Source: Candidatus Omnitrophota bacterium (GTDB lineage: Bacteria > Omnitrophota > Gorgyraeia > Tantalellales > Tantalellaceae). From it: DNA of 64,000 nt. The notes below the pieces were generated by a model. It saw only the letters and a list, made by a program, of their open reading frames with translations. It searched no databases and was not told the origin of the DNA. The stretch is taken from positions 4,262-68,261 of the forward strand of contig WJMG01000075.1 in the NCBI GenBank assembly GCA_014728075.1, given 5' to 3'. The first letter of the stretch is position 1. Every line of letters begins with the position of its first letter. The position numbers and the translations under genes are program-made. Shown piece by piece: positions 3,915 to 22,505 of the stretch.

Positions 3915-4397
3915 TCACAACCCTGTTTCTCTCTGCATATCCACTATATTGTGGCCCCGGTAAACGATCTCCCCCTCGCTGTTAACCGCTATTACCGCGG
4001 GGATACCCCTCACGCGGTAAGCGGAAGCGACCCTGCCGTCGAGATCAAGCGCCATCGGATACTTTATCCCCGTCCTCTCCACGAACGAAGCCACTTTAGC
4101 GGGGCTTTCCTGTATATTCACACCGATGATCCCGACGCTGTCGCCTTTATCGGTGTAATAATCGTTTACTTCCGGGATCTCCCTCACGCAGTAAGGGCAC
4201 CAGCTGGCTCCGAAGACCAGTACCGCGGCTTCTTTTGTCTTCAGGACTTCCGAAAGGGATATTTCGTTCCCGGCGAGGTCCTTAAGAGTGAAGTCAGGCG
4301 CTTTTCCGGCTCCACCCAGCCCCTGTGTATCCGCGGGAGTGCACGCGCTTAGAACGCAGACCGATAATACGGCTATGGTAAAAAGTTTAAGTTTCAT
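3915..4397 (-). CDS. TlpA/ResA-like thiol-disulfide oxidoreductase lipoprotein
   Basis: Lipoprotein signal peptide (LSVCVLSAC) and WCPYC thioredoxin active site. Confidence 0.8.
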   Translation of the reverse strand: MKLKLFTIAVLSVCVLSACTPADTQGLGGAGKAPDFTLKDLAGNEISLSEVLKTKEAAVLVFGASWCPYCVREIPEVNDYYTDKGDSVGIIGVNIQESPAKVASFVERTGIKYPMALDLDGRVASAYRVRGIPAVIAVNSEGEIVYRGHNIVDMQRETGL

Positions 4398-4476
4398 ATA
4401 TCTCCTCCTTTAGGATAAATAAGCCCGTTCCCGGCACTCAAACCCGGACCGGGCCTTAACCCGCCTTGATATCTCA

Positions 4477-5175
4477 TCATAAACTCAGCATTCCGGCTTT
4501 GTAAATATAATATTCCCCGAGTAAAATCAATAACAGGGCGAAAATTTTCTGTACCGCTTTCATCGCTTTCTCCGACCTGGGAAGGGAAGAAACTATCCCC
4601 GCGAAAGTTCCGATAACTATCAGAACAACGCCGAACCCGAGAGCGAAAGTAAAAAGCAGCGAGACCCCCAGAACCGGATTCTGGGTGGTTGCCACAAAAG
4701 CGAGCAAAGCCCCCAGCACCGCCGCGGCGCAGGGAGAGGCCACGAACCCGGAGGCGACACCCATAAAGAACACCGAAAGAGGGTGCCCGCTCTTTCCGGG
4801 CTTTCCGGCCCCCGCTCTTGCCAGCAGCAAAGTGGGAAGCGGGATCACATCAACAAGCGCCAGCGCAAAAAATATCATCACATTACCGACGACCAAATAT
4901 ACCAGGGGGTTGGTCTGGAACTGACCGAAAAGCTTTCCGGTCAAGGCCGCGGCGGCGCCCAGCGCGGAAAATGTGACCGCCATGCCCATGACATAGCTTA
5001 CCGAAAGGATAAAGTTCCTGGCCCTTGAGGAATCCCTGCCGGTACCTATCACGCCTACTATAATGGGTATCAACGGATAGACACATGGAGTGAAAGATGT
5101 GGCGAGGCCGCCGAGAAACACGGCTATGAAAGTGACCGGAGAAGGATTGTTCAGGTAATACGAAATATCCTGCAT
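4477..5175 (-). CDS. ccdA: cytochrome c-type biogenesis protein CcdA (DsbD transmembrane domain)
   Basis: Two conserved Cys in TM helices (FTPCVYPLIP, SPCAAAVL). Start set at MQDISYY (ATG 5175) with a GGAAAGGTGA Shine-Dalgarno sequence. Confidence 0.85.
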   Translation of the reverse strand: MQDISYYLNNPSPVTFIAVFLGGLATSFTPCVYPLIPIIVGVIGTGRDSSRARNFILSVSYVMGMAVTFSALGAAAALTGKLFGQFQTNPLVYLVVGNVMIFFALALVDVIPLPTLLLARAGAGKPGKSGHPLSVFFMGVASGFVASPCAAAVLGALLAFVATTQNPVLGVSLLFTFALGFGVVLIVIGTFAGIVSSLPRSEKAMKAVQKIFALLLILLGEYYIYKAGMLSL

Positions 5176-16879: not shown

Positions 16880-17179
16880 TTACCCGTTACAGCACTTCCT
16901 TATACAGGTCATTAATTTTAATATCTCTTTTTTCTTTATGAAATAATACACCTCATTGGAGATCTTGTCCTTGCCGAGAACGCCTTTCCCGAACATCCTT
17001 GACAGATGCTGTGAGGTGATCGACTGCTTCAGGCCGAGCTCGTCCTGTATCTGACGGACATTCATGCTGCCTTTATTCTCAAGAAGCGATATTATCGCCA
17101 GCCTTACCGGATGCGCCACGGAACGCATGACCTCGGCGGCTTCCTCGAAAGGATATGCATTTTTATTGTTCTTCGCCAT
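16880..17179 (-). CDS. ArsR/SmtB family transcriptional regulator
   Basis: 99 aa; HTH (VAHPVRLAIISLLENKGSMNVRQIQDELGLKQSITSQHLSRM) and C-terminal Cys cluster. Confidence 0.85.
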   Translation of the reverse strand: MAKNNKNAYPFEEAAEVMRSVAHPVRLAIISLLENKGSMNVRQIQDELGLKQSITSQHLSRMFGKGVLGKDKISNEVYYFIKKKEILKLMTCIRKCCNG

Positions 17180-17473
17180 TGCCGCGCCCTCCCTTGAATT
17201 ACAATATTAGTGTATTCTAATTTTCTGTTTTTGTCAAGAGGTATTCCGTTCTCCGCGCCGTATCCGGCTGAGGCGCCTTCCTTCCTCCGCGCCGTATTTT
17301 TCCGGCCCGGGGACAAGCACACTGTTTACGGGCGCCCCAAAGCCCTCTTCCTGCGAAACCTTCTGAAAAAGGGCCTTTCAGACTGCGTCACTCTGATACT
17401 CCTTTCACACAGAGTTTACGGGAAGGCCTGCCTCTGCTCCGGCCTTCAGGCCCTGAAAAAAAACACATTGTTG

Positions 17474-17502
17474 TTGACAAGTATTTTTACTTGTTTTATA
17501 CT
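17474..17502 (+). promoter_or_regulatory. consensus sigma70 promoter TTGACA - 17 nt - TATACT
   Basis: Perfect -35 hexamer, 17-nt spacer and 5/6 -10 hexamer, upstream of two small plus-strand ORFs. Confidence 0.55.
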
Positions 17503-17546
17503 TGGTACATAAGGCACTAAAAACCGCTTTTTTTCAGAAAGGATGA

Positions 17547-17693
17547 CATGAAATACCTTACTGTTATCGAGGTTATCTGTGACGCCGCCGACGAAGAAGA
17601 AGCGTATCACACGGCGGGCGAGTTCCTTAAAGGGAGCGAGGATCTTGTTGTTTCTATGACCTGCAGGACGGCGCCTCTGCAGGTCAAATAAGC
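17547..17693 (+). CDS. hypothetical small acidic protein (48 aa)
   Basis: MKYLTVIEVICDAADEEEAYHTAGEFLKGSEDLVVSMTCRTAPLQVK; AAAGGA Shine-Dalgarno, not in the track (under 60 aa), downstream of a strong promoter. Confidence 0.3.
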
Positions 17694-17727
17694 CTATCGG
17701 TTGGTTTTAAAAATGAGGGGGCATCCG

Positions 17728-17919
17728 ATGATCAAGAAAAGATACATTCAGGCGTGTGAACTCGGGGGTTCGATCTACGGCAAAAGGTCAGCAGGGAAAA
17801 AGGTCAGCCCGCTTCACAACGAAAAGGTCAACAAGAAAGATGTAGCGGATATCTACAATAAATTCTACAAGAACCAGGTCACTGCCCTGTACAAAGCCAT
17901 TCACGGCAGGAATATATAG
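17728..17919 (+). CDS. hypothetical small basic protein (63 aa)
   Basis: GAGGGGG Shine-Dalgarno 7 nt upstream of ATG 17728; MIKKRYIQACELGGSIYGKRSAGKK...; ends just before a bidirectional terminator. Confidence 0.4.
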   Translation: MIKKRYIQACELGGSIYGKRSAGKKVSPLHNEKVNKKDVADIYNKFYKNQVTALYKAIHGRNI

Positions 17920-17925
17920 ACCCAA

Positions 17926-17965
17926 AAAAGGGCCCGGTAACGATAGTTCCCGGGCCCTTTTTTAC
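17926..17965. terminator. bidirectional rho-independent terminator (AAAAAAGGGCCCGG...CCGGGCCCTTTTTT)
   Basis: GC-rich 8-bp stem flanked by an A-run and a T-run; serves the small-ORF pair (+) and the convergent LTXXQ gene (-). Confidence 0.8.
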
Positions 17966-18006
17966 AGCTCAAACGCAATATAGAAACCTTTCCGGTTTTT
18001 ATATTT

Positions 18007-18471
18007 TTATCTTTTGCATTTTTTGCCTTTCTTCTCTTCCCTGCAAAGGTCTTTCATCTCCTCGTATTGTTCTTTGCTGAGTATCTGCTTTAATTCCGCG
18101 CATGCAGCCGCTACTTTTTTAGCCTTTGCTTTCTTTATGTCGTACTTCTTATCTATCAGACCGTCTACTTTATCCAGGTCGATCTTGTCTTTCCACATCT
18201 CTTTCTTTATGTCAAGATAGACCAGGTCCTTTTCCGCGTCCCTGGTTATGACCTCTTTTTTCAGATCGTACTTCATTTTCTTGAGCTTTTCGTACTGGTC
18301 AGCGGAAAGGTCCAGTTCCTTTTTGTTCATTAGAGCTACCTTTATCTTTTTAAGGACCTTGTCCTCCCATCCCATTTTCGAGCAATGGCCGCCGGCGTAC
18401 GAAACGCCGCCGAAAACGAAAGATAAGACCAAAACGGTTACCGCGGCGCACTTGATTATCTTTCCAGACAT
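18007..18471 (-). CDS. periplasmic LTXXQ-motif protein (CpxP/Spy/ZraP family)
   Basis: Signal peptide from MSGKII; repeated LSADQYEKLKKM / LSKEQYEEMKDL motifs, lysine-rich helical protein. Confidence 0.65.
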   Translation of the reverse strand: MSGKIIKCAAVTVLVLSFVFGGVSYAGGHCSKMGWEDKVLKKIKVALMNKKELDLSADQYEKLKKMKYDLKKEVITRDAEKDLVYLDIKKEMWKDKIDLDKVDGLIDKKYDIKKAKAKKVAAACAELKQILSKEQYEEMKDLCREEKKGKKCKR

Positions 18472-18525
18472 TTTCTCCTCCTTTACCGGTTTGTGTTCAA
18501 GATACCCTTTAGCCAATATCAAAGT

Positions 18526-19134
18526 TTACCCTGTACCCAGCACATAGGCAAGTACGGCATCCGCCTGCTTGGCCGCCGCGACGCTGACCCCGGGAGATAA
18601 AGGGGGCTTCTGCGCTGTATCCGAAGAAAGATCTCCCACCAGGACCAGACCTTTTTTCAGGTTTCTCACCCTTATCCCGTCAGTATCACCGTATCCGGAT
18701 ATGCCCGAGGCAGAGACCACGAACTTACCTGTATTCATCAGAGCGGCTATCAGTTTTGATTTATATTCGGCCGCGTCGAACGCTTCCACCACAATATCAC
18801 ATTCCCCGAAAACCGCCATAATGTCGGGAGATTCCAGCTTTCGGCAGACCGCCTCTATCTCTACATCACGGTTGATCCTCAAAAGATTGGCCTTAAGGGC
18901 TTCCACTTTACTATCACCAACCTGGTCCTCAAAATAGAACTGCCGGTTGAGATTCGATAACTCGACCCGGTCGAAATCAACTATGAGAAATCTCCTGAAA
19001 CCCGACCTTACGAGACAGGCGGCGCAATTCGACCCCAAACCCCCTGCCCCGGCTATGCCCACCCTCACGGCCTGTATCTTTTTCAGGTTCTCTTCACCTA
19101 TATATCCGGCTATGGCTTTTTCGAAATTGTTCAT
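18526..19134 (-). CDS. thiF: ThiF/MoeB-family E1-like adenylyltransferase (sulfur carrier ThiS adenylyltransferase)
   Basis: Rossmann motif VGIAGAGGLGS; start set at MNNFEK with a GAGGT Shine-Dalgarno sequence; last gene of the thi operon. Confidence 0.8.
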   Translation of the reverse strand: MNNFEKAIAGYIGEENLKKIQAVRVGIAGAGGLGSNCAACLVRSGFRRFLIVDFDRVELSNLNRQFYFEDQVGDSKVEALKANLLRINRDVEIEAVCRKLESPDIMAVFGECDIVVEAFDAAEYKSKLIAALMNTGKFVVSASGISGYGDTDGIRVRNLKKGLVLVGDLSSDTAQKPPLSPGVSVAAAKQADAVLAYVLGTG

Positions 19135-19216
19135 GATATTACTGACCTCTGACCACAGACCACGGACCACTTGCTATTATATTAAAATATGCGGTCTGTC
19201 GGCCGATGTCTGTCAT

Positions 19217-20329
19217 CTAAATATCCATCCAGTCCTTTAATACGGGCTGATACCCTTTTTCCTTAAGCATCGCGCGTATCTCAGCCACATCCCTTCTGTC
19301 CGCTATGTCGAACTGCGTGATGTACGGCCCGTCCGGGGCCTTGAGGGTGTGACCACCCACGGCGGTAGTAGACCCCGCGGACATACGCGTAACCCCGAGA
19401 GGTATGAGGTTCTCACGGAACCGGGCGCCTTCTCTTGTTGAAAGCGTTATTCCAACCCTGGGAAGGAATATCCTGAAAGCGGTTAAGATCTGCGCGACTT
19501 CCACCTCCGATACGGTACACGCCGGCAGGAAATCTCCGGAACAGGGCCTGAGGCGCGGCACGGATACGCTTATCTCGGCCGCGGGGAACTCTTTCTGCAG
19601 ATAAGCGGCATGCAGTCCGGTAAAGAATACCTCTTTTCTCCAGTCGTTCAGACCCAGCAAAGCGCCTATATTAATGGTCCTCATTCCCGCTCTGCCCGCC
19701 CTTTCGGGGGCTTCCAGACGGAATTCATAATTCTTTTTAACTCCCGACACATGCACTTTGTCGTATACGCCACGGTCATAGACTTCCTGATATATGGTAA
19801 GACCGTCAACACCCGCGCTTATGAGCTCCCTGTATTCTTCTCCGGAGAGCGCGTATACTTCTATCGATATGGAACTGAAATATGCCTTAAGGACCCCGAC
19901 ACATTCCTTTATATAAGATACGGGACTTGCTTTTCTGGACCCGCCCGTAAGGATAAGCAGGTGTTTCAGGCCCGTGGAAGAAATGAACTCCGCCTCTTTT
20001 TCAACTTCCTCAAGGGTAAGCTTTCTGCCGGCCCTTACGCCGCGCGAACTGAATCCGCAATAGGCGCAATCGTTCTCGCAATGATCGGCAAGGTACATGG
20101 GAGTATAAAGCTGTATCACCCTTCCGAAATTCTTCAAGGTCAAACGGTGAGCCCTCTGAGCCATCTCTTCAATAAGACCTTCCGCGGCCGGGGAAAGCAT
20201 CGCCAGAAAGTCCTTCTCTCCCGGCCTGCCTGAACGGACGGCCCGTTCAACATGCTTTACGGACACTGAATCCAGAAACGCTTCCAGATCCGTATTGTCA
20301 TATTTATCATATATGGGAATAAAGCTCAT
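19217..20329 (-). CDS. thiH: 2-iminoacetate synthase ThiH (radical SAM)
   Basis: CENDCAYCGF radical-SAM motif, about 370 aa, thi operon context. Confidence 0.85.
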   Translation of the reverse strand: MSFIPIYDKYDNTDLEAFLDSVSVKHVERAVRSGRPGEKDFLAMLSPAAEGLIEEMAQRAHRLTLKNFGRVIQLYTPMYLADHCENDCAYCGFSSRGVRAGRKLTLEEVEKEAEFISSTGLKHLLILTGGSRKASPVSYIKECVGVLKAYFSSISIEVYALSGEEYRELISAGVDGLTIYQEVYDRGVYDKVHVSGVKKNYEFRLEAPERAGRAGMRTINIGALLGLNDWRKEVFFTGLHAAYLQKEFPAAEISVSVPRLRPCSGDFLPACTVSEVEVAQILTAFRIFLPRVGITLSTREGARFRENLIPLGVTRMSAGSTTAVGGHTLKAPDGPYITQFDIADRRDVAEIRAMLKEKGYQPVLKDWMDI

Positions 20330-20427
20330 GATCTTTGATCTCCGAAGCACTGACGACGGGCCAAATACTTATACTGCAAAAACATGTGGCAGGTAGCCCG
20401 TGGTCTGCCGGTATTTCTTCTTCGCAA

Positions 20428-22231: not shown

Positions 22232-22370
22232 ACAACAAAAGAACTCCCTGCTTTTTCCGCGCAGGGAGTTCTTTTGTTTTCTCCTCCCTACGCCGGCATT
22301 AACCGGATCAGGTCAACGGGTAATCCGACTTCATCGGAACTCTCAGAAGGACCAGCCTCCTCCCCGGGAT
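22232..22370 (-). ncRNA. TPP (thiamine pyrophosphate) riboswitch with terminator expression platform
   Basis: Minus-sense sequence carries the conserved GGGGAG...CUGAGA...ACCC...UGACCUGAUCCGGUUAAUGCCGGCGUAGGGA core. It is followed by hairpin AAAAGAACUCCCUGC/GCAGGGAGUUCUUUU plus a U-rich tail, about 80 nt upstream of thiS. Confidence 0.85.
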
Positions 22371-22505
22371 ATCTTTTTTTTCACATATTATAAAGGACCT
22401 CCCGGTCATATCCTGTCGAGCGGCCTTTATCCAAGACCTCAAAAAAACCGAAGATCCTCAAATGAAATTAGACCATAATACTACAGTAAAGTCAATATAT
22501 TGATA

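Follow-up and report, generated by a model that had tools for sequence, protein, structure and literature searches.

What are two very small genes, one for an acidic and one for a basic protein, doing side by side behind a strong promoter of their own in a member of the Omnitrophota, an uncultured phylum in which cells are mostly very small and genomes are almost the sole source of biological knowledge? The pair lies in the 64,000-nucleotide stretch of DNA that we analysed (the window, to which all coordinates refer). An earlier note on this DNA had described it as a self-contained module of two small ORFs, and every element of that description was located where it had been claimed, with minor corrections only. 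The unit is a genuine operon, complete in itself, that encodes two tiny proteins and spans 17474-17963 on the + strand; it is made up of a promoter, two ORFs each led by a Shine-Dalgarno sequence, and a two-way hairpin terminator. Our preferred reading, to which we would give a probability of about 0.4, is that it is an autoregulated bicistronic operon whose two very small products are cognate partners.

The sigma-70-type promoter (17474..17502, +) consists of TTGACA (17474-17479), a 17-nt spacer and TATACT (17497-17502), just as had been described. It matches the consensus at 11 of 12 positions and is the top site in a 7-kb scan; sites with at most one mismatch number three in the 64-kb window, this promoter among them, against 0.19 expected. 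The upstream gene, ORF1 (17548..17691, +), follows the Shine-Dalgarno sequence GAAAGGA (17537..17543, +; 4 nt before the ATG) and encodes a protein with a pI of 4.4 and a net charge of -5.4, so that its reported strong acidity stands while its reported length of 48 aa becomes 47. After a spacing of 36 nt comes ORF2 (17728..17919, +), which has its own Shine-Dalgarno sequence, GAGGGGG (17715..17721, +; 6 nt before the ATG), and encodes the expected basic protein of 63 aa (pI 10.0, net charge +9.7, 14 K+R in its 63 residues). We take the ATG at 17728 as the real start of ORF2 because the family alignment shows it, and the same alignment led us to reject a TTG at 17701. The two genes are co-directional and form one operon, an arrangement kept in two other loci, L001 and L026. 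Beyond ORF2, the terminator (17924..17963, both strands) reads A6, GGGCCCGGTAAC, loop GATA, GTTCCCGGGCCC, T6 and serves both ORF2 and a convergent LTXXQ-like gene, lying between their stop codons. It folds on either strand (-27.8 kcal/mol on the + strand, -29.2 on the - strand) and is thus bidirectional as proposed, but not perfect, since one position inside its 12-bp stem is mismatched; in L001 the sequence at this site differs but still forms a perfect hairpin (-30.5). The predicted transcript would be about 460 nt long, from near 17509 to the T-tract around 17963.

Comparison with the syntenic relative L001 establishes that both ORFs are protein-coding. Synonymous sites are near saturation between the two, and the changes fall mainly at third codon positions (7/4/23 by codon position in ORF1, or 23 of about 34-35 at the third; 6/5/35 in ORF2), with a dN/dS of about 0.05 for ORF1. 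By this measure both are under purifying selection, and both peptides, on whose conservation the earlier note had made its proposal depend, are kept in L001, as are the core of the first Shine-Dalgarno sequence, CAGAAAGG, and the GGGGGCA of the second. The coding status of ORF1 is further backed by its homologues and AlphaFold model.

ORF1 is confidently predicted to be a beta-alpha-beta mini-domain, its AlphaFold model (pLDDT 90.9) having a strand at residues 3-11, a helix at 16-27 and a second strand at 35-43. Its family has ten further members, and protein homologues reach down to 40% identity. The members are either stand-alone proteins of 45-51 aa or larger ones of 111-120 aa, in which the ORF1 domain is N-terminal and precedes a predicted hydrophobic (membrane) segment and a conserved tail, A[IV]QPPLKT. 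We considered ORF1 as an antitoxin domain of the AbrB/MazE/PrlF type and rejected it as such, since it gave no Pfam or NCBIfam match to that swapped-hairpin (SpoVT-AbrB) domain even at E up to 1 and its predicted fold is beta-alpha-beta.

ORF2 comprises an N-terminal motif, KKRYIQACELGGSIYGKR, a basic linker containing KKVSPLHN, and a C-terminal amphipathic helix. AlphaFold places the helix at residues 36-59 (pLDDT 79-87) and gives the N-terminal half no secondary structure (pLDDT 60-65), and on this model, and with its 14 K+R, ORF2 looks like a binder rather than an enzyme. Its family, which we define by the pattern KKY[IL]QACE-GGSIYGK followed by a Y-x2-FY-x2-Q helix, forms 79 clusters at 50% identity, nearly all of 53-88 aa. 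The window's protein belongs to it by a full-length match to the family HMM (96.7 bits), by its size, about 60 aa, and by the residues C10, Y47 and Q50, each at least 90% conserved when ORF2 is aligned with 62 members. The 18 genome loci of the family are every one in Omnitrophota or PVC MAGs, and judging from the sequences found so far, both families appear to be known only from Omnitrophota (for ORF2, Omnitrophota or PVC MAGs). The protein database searched contained no sequence identical to the window ORF2, which may thus lack annotation in the public record; genes as small as this are often missing from public annotation.

The earlier note recognised no family in either peptide, and profile searches of Pfam, NCBIfam, PADLOC, PHROGs and PDB were likewise negative for both, as were PDB sequence searches and, for ORF2, Foldseek. 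The company that ORF2-like genes keep is more informative, and takes three forms. The commonest setting among the sampled loci is the dcw operon (18 loci), in the order mraZ, p63, ORF2-like gene, rsmH, ftsL, ftsI, where p63 is a conserved 63-aa gene with no match in Pfam, NCBIfam, PADLOC or PHROGs. The canonical dcw cluster is not known to include a pair of additional small genes in the mraZ-rsmH interval. Typically 3-27 nt separate the ORF2-like gene from rsmH. Its distance from p63 is 4-324 nt, and these loci have a promoter followed by three GTGGA boxes, with the ORF2-like gene downstream of mraZ. In the second setting, a mini AbrB/PrlF-like gene (56-66 aa) stands directly upstream of the ORF2-like gene, their stop and start codons abutting or overlapping by 1 or 4 nt. 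This partner matches PrlF_antitoxin (1e-6), MazE (1.6e-3) and an antitoxin PHROG (4.5e-5), its AbrB/PrlF match in Pfam being below the gathering score (29 bits vs 32), and the partners matching SpoVT-AbrB are only those in L002, L007, L010, L030, L031 and L033. We take the mini-AbrB to be essentially the DNA-binding domain alone, without the C-terminal toxin-binding tail usual in MazE and PrlF.

The third setting is the pairing of ORF1 with ORF2, found in the window, in L001 and in L026, where the gene order is reversed behind the same promoter-operator. That the two genes stay together behind this promoter in all three genomes, even where their order is flipped, supports the view that this pairing is functional. 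Modules of the AbrB and ORF1 classes occur in at least four different neighbourhoods, between unrelated housekeeping genes. The idea that the partner types (ORF1, AbrB-like and p63) are distant homologues of one another, or that p63 is one of ORF2, was rejected by hhalign, which returned probabilities of 0.1% for p63 against ORF1, 3% for p63 against ORF2 and 0.04% for ORF1 against ORF2. AbrB-like and p63 partners are both basic, so that acid-base complementarity does not hold for the family in general. The literature found on Omnitrophota with mraZ, toxin-antitoxin or AbrB leaves these genes unmentioned.

What the ORF1-class and AbrB-class modules have in common, apart from ORF2, is the DNA in front of them. 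A 34-nt block over the window promoter is identical at 34 of 34 positions in L001, and the flanking spacer is unalignable. (We rejected a 100-aa ORF at 17210-17512, + strand, as a gene in this spacer, the region being indel-rich and unalignable in L001.) The same promoter fronts the related modules in L026, L002/L003, L007, L010, L030, L031 and L033. Within it lies a putative operator (17478..17504, +) of three hexamers, CAAGTA (17478-17483), TACTTG (17488-17493) and TACTTG (17499-17504), placed about one helical turn apart and overlapping both the -35/-10 spacer and the -10 element. The general pattern over these 27 bp is TTGACAAGTA-N4-TACTTG-N5-TACTTG, which in the window takes the form CAAGTA-N4-TACTTG-N5-TACTTG. 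The window contains the palindrome CAAGTA-N4-TACTTG a single time (0.08 expected), and the palindrome is found exactly in the promoters of six fetched loci and also in those of L030, L031 and L033. The operator is common to the ORF1-class loci (window, L001, L026) and to those of the AbrB class (L002, L003, L007, L010, L030, L031, L033), and is thus present with either type of upstream partner. A protein may bind here.

How might such an operon work? In the autoregulated pair that we favour, ORF2 would be the conserved core component. We infer that it folds on its partner, because its predicted make-up is an N-terminal motif without structure, a linker rich in lysine and a single amphipathic helix, and that it may be a small regulator acting with nucleic acid or with AbrB-fold repressors, because it is normally encoded beside AbrB-fold DNA-binding proteins (MraZ, or the 56-66-aa mini-AbrB). 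ORF1 would bind ORF2 and antagonise or buffer it, much as anti-repressors or anti-factors do. The strong promoter would be repressed through the three CAAGTA/TACTTG hexamers over its -35/-10 region, and the repressor could be ORF2, by itself or together with ORF1, or else a mini-AbrB whose gene lies elsewhere in the genome.

ORF1 resembles an anti-factor in that its fold is confidently modelled, its charge is opposite to that of ORF2, and its domain has membrane-anchored relatives. Membrane-anchored anti-sigma and other anti-factors have an N-terminal domain followed by a membrane segment and sequester a cytoplasmic regulator, and the 111-120-aa proteins with an ORF1 domain share this topology. 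The ORF1 domain, however, matches known anti-sigma domains neither in sequence nor in fold, and the genes of its membrane-anchored homologues have no adjoining sigma factor and no ORF2-like gene within about 5 kb. A possible analogue is AbrB-AbbA of Bacillus subtilis, a repressor/anti-repressor pair in which AbbA is small, strongly acidic and helical. The role proposed for ORF1 would resemble that of AbbA, a small acidic protein countering a basic factor associated with DNA binding, but ORF1 is predicted to be beta-alpha-beta and is unrelated in sequence to AbbA, and ORF2 is not of AbrB fold.

A wider version of this regulatory reading, which we consider speculative and unlikely, is that the ORF2 family and p63 constitute an unnoticed, lineage-specific layer of dcw control. 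ORF2-family proteins would be small basic co-regulators acting alongside MraZ-type AbrB-fold repressors, and the window operon would be a satellite circuit where ORF1 titrates the regulator. Most sampled ORF2-family genes sit in mraZ-rsmH-ftsL-ftsI clusters, immediately 5' of rsmH, and the window operator, its three hexamers set about 10-11 bp apart at or close to the promoter, is reminiscent of the three GTGGA boxes of the dcw loci. The window differs in that its hexamer is TACTTG, not GTGGA, and in that tblastn over its 64 kb found no mraZ, rsmH or AbrB-like gene and no second ORF2. If the dcw layer were real, three protein families without known relatives would together make up a new partner-switching module. 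Independently of that, the analysis adds three small-protein families without database annotation (ORF1, the ORF2 family and p63), defines a promoter-operator, and shows the ORF2 family to be part of the dcw cell-division operon as well as of satellite operons that resemble toxin-antitoxin systems. Should ORF2 be a regulator, it would offer a testable handle on the lineage-specific control of division genes, and a 27-bp operator with peptides of 47 and 63 aa is of a size suited to direct biochemistry.

The strongest alternative, although we think it rather unlikely, is that we are dealing with a true type II toxin-antitoxin system: ORF2 would be a small basic toxin of a new kind, ORF1 the acidic antitoxin neutralising it by binding, and the complex, or an AbrB-type antitoxin acting in trans, would repress the operon's own promoter. 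If so, ORF2 would represent a new family of toxins whose three partners are interchangeable. The earlier note had pointed to this resemblance, and as far as layout goes it was borne out. Like MazEF, PrlF-YhaV and AbrB-type VapBC, the unit is an operon of two small adjacent genes, here with its own strong promoter and terminator, and in close relatives of ORF2 the coupling to the upstream gene is as direct as the abutting or overlapping codons described above. As in type II systems, inverted and direct repeats overlap the promoter; many relatives have, upstream, a gene for an AbrB/PrlF/MazE-like swapped-hairpin domain; and partner types are exchanged and gene order can flip between genomes. The modules lie amid unrelated housekeeping genes in their several neighbourhoods, and a second ORF1 paralogue (P0087) is present in the same MAG.

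Resemblance in layout did not extend to family, as neither toxin, antitoxin, defence or phage families nor solved structures gave a match to the unit. ORF2 in particular does not resemble MazF, YhaV or PIN toxins, and it is predicted to be mostly unstructured with a single helix, not a globular toxin. The window partner is not AbrB-like, and the mini-AbrB of the relatives presumably lacks the tail by which such antitoxins usually hold their toxins. In the distribution of the family, the several neighbourhoods and the second ORF1 paralogue are to be weighed against 18 sampled loci that occupy one fixed dcw slot across divergent genomes, a single match in each representative genome, and none in 2.9 million viral contigs. 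Occupation of a fixed slot between mraZ and rsmH by most sampled members is unlike the behaviour of toxin-antitoxin modules. The unit may be called toxin-antitoxin-like in its layout, but on these comparisons membership is not established, and we regard a regulatory role as the more likely of the two because the relatives of ORF2 mostly sit inside the cell-division gene cluster.

The position next to rsmH admits another explanation, in which ORF2-family proteins are small basic proteins associated with the ribosome or rRNA and tied to RsmH, a 16S rRNA methyltransferase, and the window copy is a paralogue with ORF1 as its chaperone. The dcw copies are indeed mostly more tightly linked to rsmH than to p63, and the very high pI and lysine-rich linker of ORF2 would suit such a role. 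But the AbrB-class and ORF1-class modules have no rsmH nearby, ORF2 has no match to a ribosomal-protein or RNA-binding family in Pfam, NCBIfam or PDB profiles, and a dedicated repeat operator together with an AbrB-type partner suggests regulation at the level of DNA; we find this explanation improbable.

We see an equally slim chance that ORF1 and ORF2 are simply co-transcribed and have independent functions. Proteins with an ORF1 domain do occur without an ORF2-like neighbour, and most ORF2-like genes are accompanied by other partners. It would then be difficult, however, to explain why, in three genomes, the two remain neighbours although synonymous divergence is saturated, the surroundings have changed and the order has been inverted, and why the pair always lies behind the same promoter-operator.

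Of the flanking genes, the ArsR regulator on one side, as had been noted, was confirmed by a match to NF033788 (58.6 bits vs a cut-off of 55). The supposed CpxP/Spy-like envelope-stress protein on the other (18007-18522, -) does match LTXXQ (PF07813), but below the cut-off (20.2-20.7 bits vs 24.3, E 0.0007-0.001), and has no NCBIfam match. ArsR and LTXXQ-like flanks were found for the window and its one syntenic relative only, the L026 pair lying near rimP-nusA instead, and the suggestion that these are stress peptides is therefore without support.

Finally, the suggestion that the stretch from promoter to ORF2 is not a gene but a structured RNA leader, riboswitch or sRNA can be given next to no credence, in view of the purifying selection on ORF1 (dN/dS 0.05, differences concentrated at third positions), its homologues down to 40% identity, some with the sequence as a domain of a longer protein, its confidently predicted fold, a 5' UTR of just about 40 nt, and an Rfam search that gave no match at gathering score. 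In that search, over 17150-18050 at E up to 10, all matches were far below threshold, and the best of them (E 0.013-0.17) fall on the terminator hairpin. Across the window as a whole, Rfam has a single gathering-level match, a TPP riboswitch at 22268-22376.

The complete transcription unit lies on the plus strand at 17474-17963, flanked by minus-strand genes, and carries the gene for a small acidic protein (ORF1) followed by that for a small basic protein (ORF2). Its promoter, TTGACA (17474-17479) and TATACT (17497-17502) separated by 17 nt, earns the description of textbook that the earlier note gave it, with 11 of 12 matches and the top place in a 7-kb scan; sites within one mismatch of the consensus number three in the 64-kb window, against 0.19 expected. 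As that note also proposed, each ORF has its own Shine-Dalgarno sequence, although ORF1 (17548-17691, + strand, GAAAGGA 4 nt 5' of the ATG) encodes 47 aa rather than the 48 claimed; ORF2 (17728-17919, + strand, GAGGGGG 6 nt 5' of the ATG) encodes 63 aa. The contrast in charge is genuine, ORF1 having a pI of 4.4 and a charge of -5.4, and ORF2 a pI of 10.0 and a charge of +9.7. An upstream TTG at 17701 was rejected as the start of ORF2, because in the family alignment every relative begins at the M-K-K of 17728. The unit ends, as predicted, at a bidirectional terminator (A6-GGGCCCGGTAAC-GATA-GTTCCCGGGCCC-T6, 17924-17963, both strands), which folds at -27.8 kcal/mol on the plus strand and -29.2 on the minus strand and is common to the convergent gene at 18007-18522. 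The exact ORF1 is on record in the source Candidatus Omnitrophica MAG as hypothetical protein GF408_06295; the protein search that returned it did not return the exact ORF2, so ORF2 may have no annotation in that MAG's public record.

The impression that neither peptide belongs to a recognised family was borne out, ORF1 having no family or structure match in the libraries searched and ORF2 none in Pfam, NCBIfam, PADLOC, PHROGs or the PDB. A word-indexed search of 5.8 billion proteins gave four relatives of ORF2 (61-63 aa each, 51-85% identity), and a profile search of 1.84 billion representatives gave 79 clusters at E ≤1e-3, all but one of them 53-88 aa long with a single match. The family has an N-terminal motif (M-KK-Y-[IL]-Q-A-C-E-x-G-G-S-I-Y-G-K), a linker of about 18 residues rich in lysine, arginine and serine (including KKVSPLHN in the window's subgroup) and a C-terminal segment, Y-x2-F-Y-x2-Q-x3-[LM]; C10, Y47 and Q50 are at least 90% conserved among 63 aligned members. 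Given that alignment, AlphaFold predicts a helix at residues 36-59 (pLDDT 79-87) as the sole element, leaving the N-terminal half without secondary structure (pLDDT 60-65), and the predicted profile is that of a protein folding on a partner, not of an enzyme. Two subgroups can be told apart: A, whose members end in YNKFY-DQV-ALY-AI and often have a degenerate N-terminal motif, and B, in which that motif is strictly kept and the C-terminus reads Q-x3-M-x-[KR]-[VI]-F-R-R. Scanning one genome per species turned up 18 loci, one per genome, all in MAGs labelled Omnitrophota or ('binchicken' assemblies) Planctomycetia; because the patterns searched were exact peptides taken from the N-terminal motif, subgroup A is under-sampled.

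For ORF1, a profile search gave ten members beyond the window's own. Three are stand-alone copies of 45-51 aa, in L001 (the syntenic relative of the window), in locus L026 and as P0087 (GF408_07340), on a 39-kb contig. The last shares 76% identity with the window's ORF1 and 80% with the L026 copy; the GF408 locus-tag prefix, common to it and the window's gene, marks it as a second copy within the source MAG. The other seven are long forms of 111-120 aa (proteins P0086 and P0089-P0094; genes at L025 186-527 and L027 5001-5354), in which the ORF1 domain makes up the N-terminal 45 residues and is followed by a hydrophobic segment, which probably spans the membrane, and by a tail in which A[IV]QPPLKT ... 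W-x-E is conserved. Their genes adjoin FAD-linked oxidase genes.

The ORF2 family recurs in three settings: a dcw operon, a class with an AbrB-like partner, and the class with ORF1. In the AbrB class (L002-L004, L007, L010, L030, L031, L033) the ORF2-like gene follows one for a 56-66-aa protein, here called mini-AbrB, their stop and start codons abutting or overlapping by 1 or 4 nt. Mini-AbrB matches PrlF_antitoxin at 1e-6, its 29 bits falling just short of the 32 required, and also MazE (1.6e-3) and an antitoxin PHROG (4.5e-5); the pairs recur upstream of genes for an isocitrate/isopropylmalate-type dehydrogenase or a phosphofructokinase. Such partners, the operon layout, the exchange of partners among loci and the inverted gene order at L026 all speak for a genuine type II toxin-antitoxin system in which ORF2 would be a new toxin, and in layout and partners the resemblance suspected earlier stands. 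However, ORF2 is predicted to be non-globular, occupies a fixed slot in the dcw operon and gives one match per genome; mini-AbrB lacks a tail, and no relatives of ORF2 were found in 2.9 million viral contigs. Moreover, ORF2 could be placed in no toxin superfamily, as a type II toxin would be, so membership of any toxin-antitoxin family cannot be demonstrated for the unit. We therefore consider this, the main rival, unlikely.

The dcw setting has the order mraZ, p63, ORF2-like gene, rsmH, ftsL, ftsI in 18 loci (the dcw loci listed are L005, L006, L008, L009, L011-L024 and L034), with gaps of 4-324 nt before the ORF2-like gene and mostly 3-27 nt between it and rsmH. The p63 gene (L005 829-1020; L006 374-565; 15 further dcw loci) encodes a basic 63-aa protein that starts MYRRYAVKFHKKQVEFINCVNMVERIKKARAL and is conserved far above ORF2; searches of Pfam, PADLOC and PHROGs gave it no match, and profile comparison does not relate it to ORF1 or ORF2. 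The promoter of these operons is TTGACA-17-TATACT, and after it come three GTGGA boxes spaced about 10-11 nt, as is usual for MraZ boxes. In L005-L023 promoter and boxes occupy the stretch from about 60 nt upstream of mraZ into its start, the boxes running into the start codon. A role for ORF2 tied to RsmH or the ribosome would suit the slot before rsmH; the AbrB and ORF1 settings lie outside that slot, and we regard such a role as improbable.

The ORF1 class comprises the window, L001 and L026. The last has the genes the other way round, the ORF2-like gene (4305-4493) preceding the ORF1-like gene (4527-4682), and its neighbours are rimP and nusA, different from those of the window. The two genes have thus stayed adjacent although their order was inverted and their surroundings changed, which argues strongly that ORF1 and ORF2 function together. 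Functional independence of the two, a lesser rival, is improbable; in its favour, no ORF2-like gene was found within about 5 kb of the long ORF1-family genes.

Another feature common to these modules is the sequence of the promoter itself. Its spacer in the window holds a perfect palindrome, CAAGTA-TTTT-TACTTG (17478-17493; one in the window against 0.08 expected), and a third hexamer, TACTTG (17499-17504), overlaps the -10 element, the centre-to-centre spacings being 10 and 11 bp. The arrangement TTGA-CAAGTA-N4-TACTTG-N5-TACTTG precedes every module of the AbrB and ORF1 classes for which upstream DNA was available (besides the window, L001, L026, L002, L003, L007, L010, L030, L031 and L033), with a fourth hexamer in L031, and is absent from the dcw loci. 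Since this putative operator overlaps the core promoter, it implies repression, and probably autorepression. In the AbrB class the obvious candidate for binding it is mini-AbrB. In the ORF1 class neither the operon nor the rest of the 64-kb window has an AbrB-like gene, and the putative operator is perfectly kept despite saturated synonymous sites; thus either ORF2, the sole component common to both classes, may join in binding, or a mini-AbrB encoded elsewhere may act in trans.

From the anatomy, the coding status, the conserved pairing and the shared promoter-operator sequence, all directly observed, we infer a model to which we give a probability of roughly 40%. The operon would encode a cognate pair, in which ORF2 would be a small basic regulator-like protein acting with AbrB-fold DNA-binding proteins (MraZ in the dcw operon, mini-AbrB in the AbrB class) and ORF1 an acidic anti-factor that binds and buffers it, while the three hexamers would hold the operon in check. 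The presumed membrane-anchored homologues of ORF1 recall anti-sigma proteins in topology, which would be in keeping with an anti-factor role; this is an analogy, with no homology claimed. It is a more doubtful proposition that the ORF2 family and p63 form a lineage-specific layer of dcw control, of which the window's operon would be a satellite partner-switch circuit. In how it would work, the unit resembles autoregulated toxin-antitoxin or anti-repressor modules. It is assembled from new protein families, those of ORF1, ORF2 and p63 being unannotated in every library searched, and literature searches returned no description of them.

The coding status follows from comparison with L001, where the gene order (ArsR, 47-aa gene, 63-aa gene, LTXXQ-like gene, ThiF, ThiH) is that of the window. 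Between the two, ORF1 has 34 nucleotide differences (7/4/23 at codon positions 1, 2 and 3; dN/dS ~0.05) and ORF2 has 46 (6/5/35), with synonymous sites saturated. Across a 34-nt block covering the promoter identity is 100%, and the L001 terminator is a hairpin of different sequence and equal strength (-30.5 kcal/mol), whereas the ~240-nt spacer toward the ArsR gene has many indels and is hardly alignable. The unit has therefore been kept as a module, with stronger constraint on the promoter than on the coding sequence. The alternative raised earlier, a non-coding leader, riboswitch or sRNA, can be dismissed, since Rfam gives nothing at gathering level in this region, the weaker matches of lowest E-value fall on the terminator hairpin, and ORF1 and ORF2 evolve as genes. 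A 100-aa ORF across the spacer (17210-17512, + strand) was rejected as a gene, not being conserved in L001.

Of the neighbours named in the earlier note, the upstream ArsR/SmtB regulator (16880-17179, - strand) exceeds its NCBIfam cut-off, with an MMPL/RND transporter beyond it, but the supposed CpxP/Spy-like gene at 18007-18522 matches LTXXQ only below threshold. Some 46 nt upstream of the ArsR gene (~17193-17238, - strand) form a block that is near-identical in L001; it holds a TTGACA-17-TACACT promoter and an ATTAG-N6-CTAAT inverted repeat, and is probably the ArsR promoter and operator, distinct from the plus-strand module. Between the two promoters, the spacer at 17240-17470, not conserved in L001, contains two pairs of short direct repeats, TTCC-N-TCCGCGCCGTAT 34 nt apart and CACA-N2-GTTTACGGG 90 nt apart. 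Past the LTXXQ-like gene lie ThiF (18526-19170, - strand) and ThiH (19217-20350, - strand), and upstream of both, on the same strand, is the sole gathering-level Rfam match in the window, a TPP riboswitch (RF00059; 22268-22376, 73.3 bits, gathering score 54.3).
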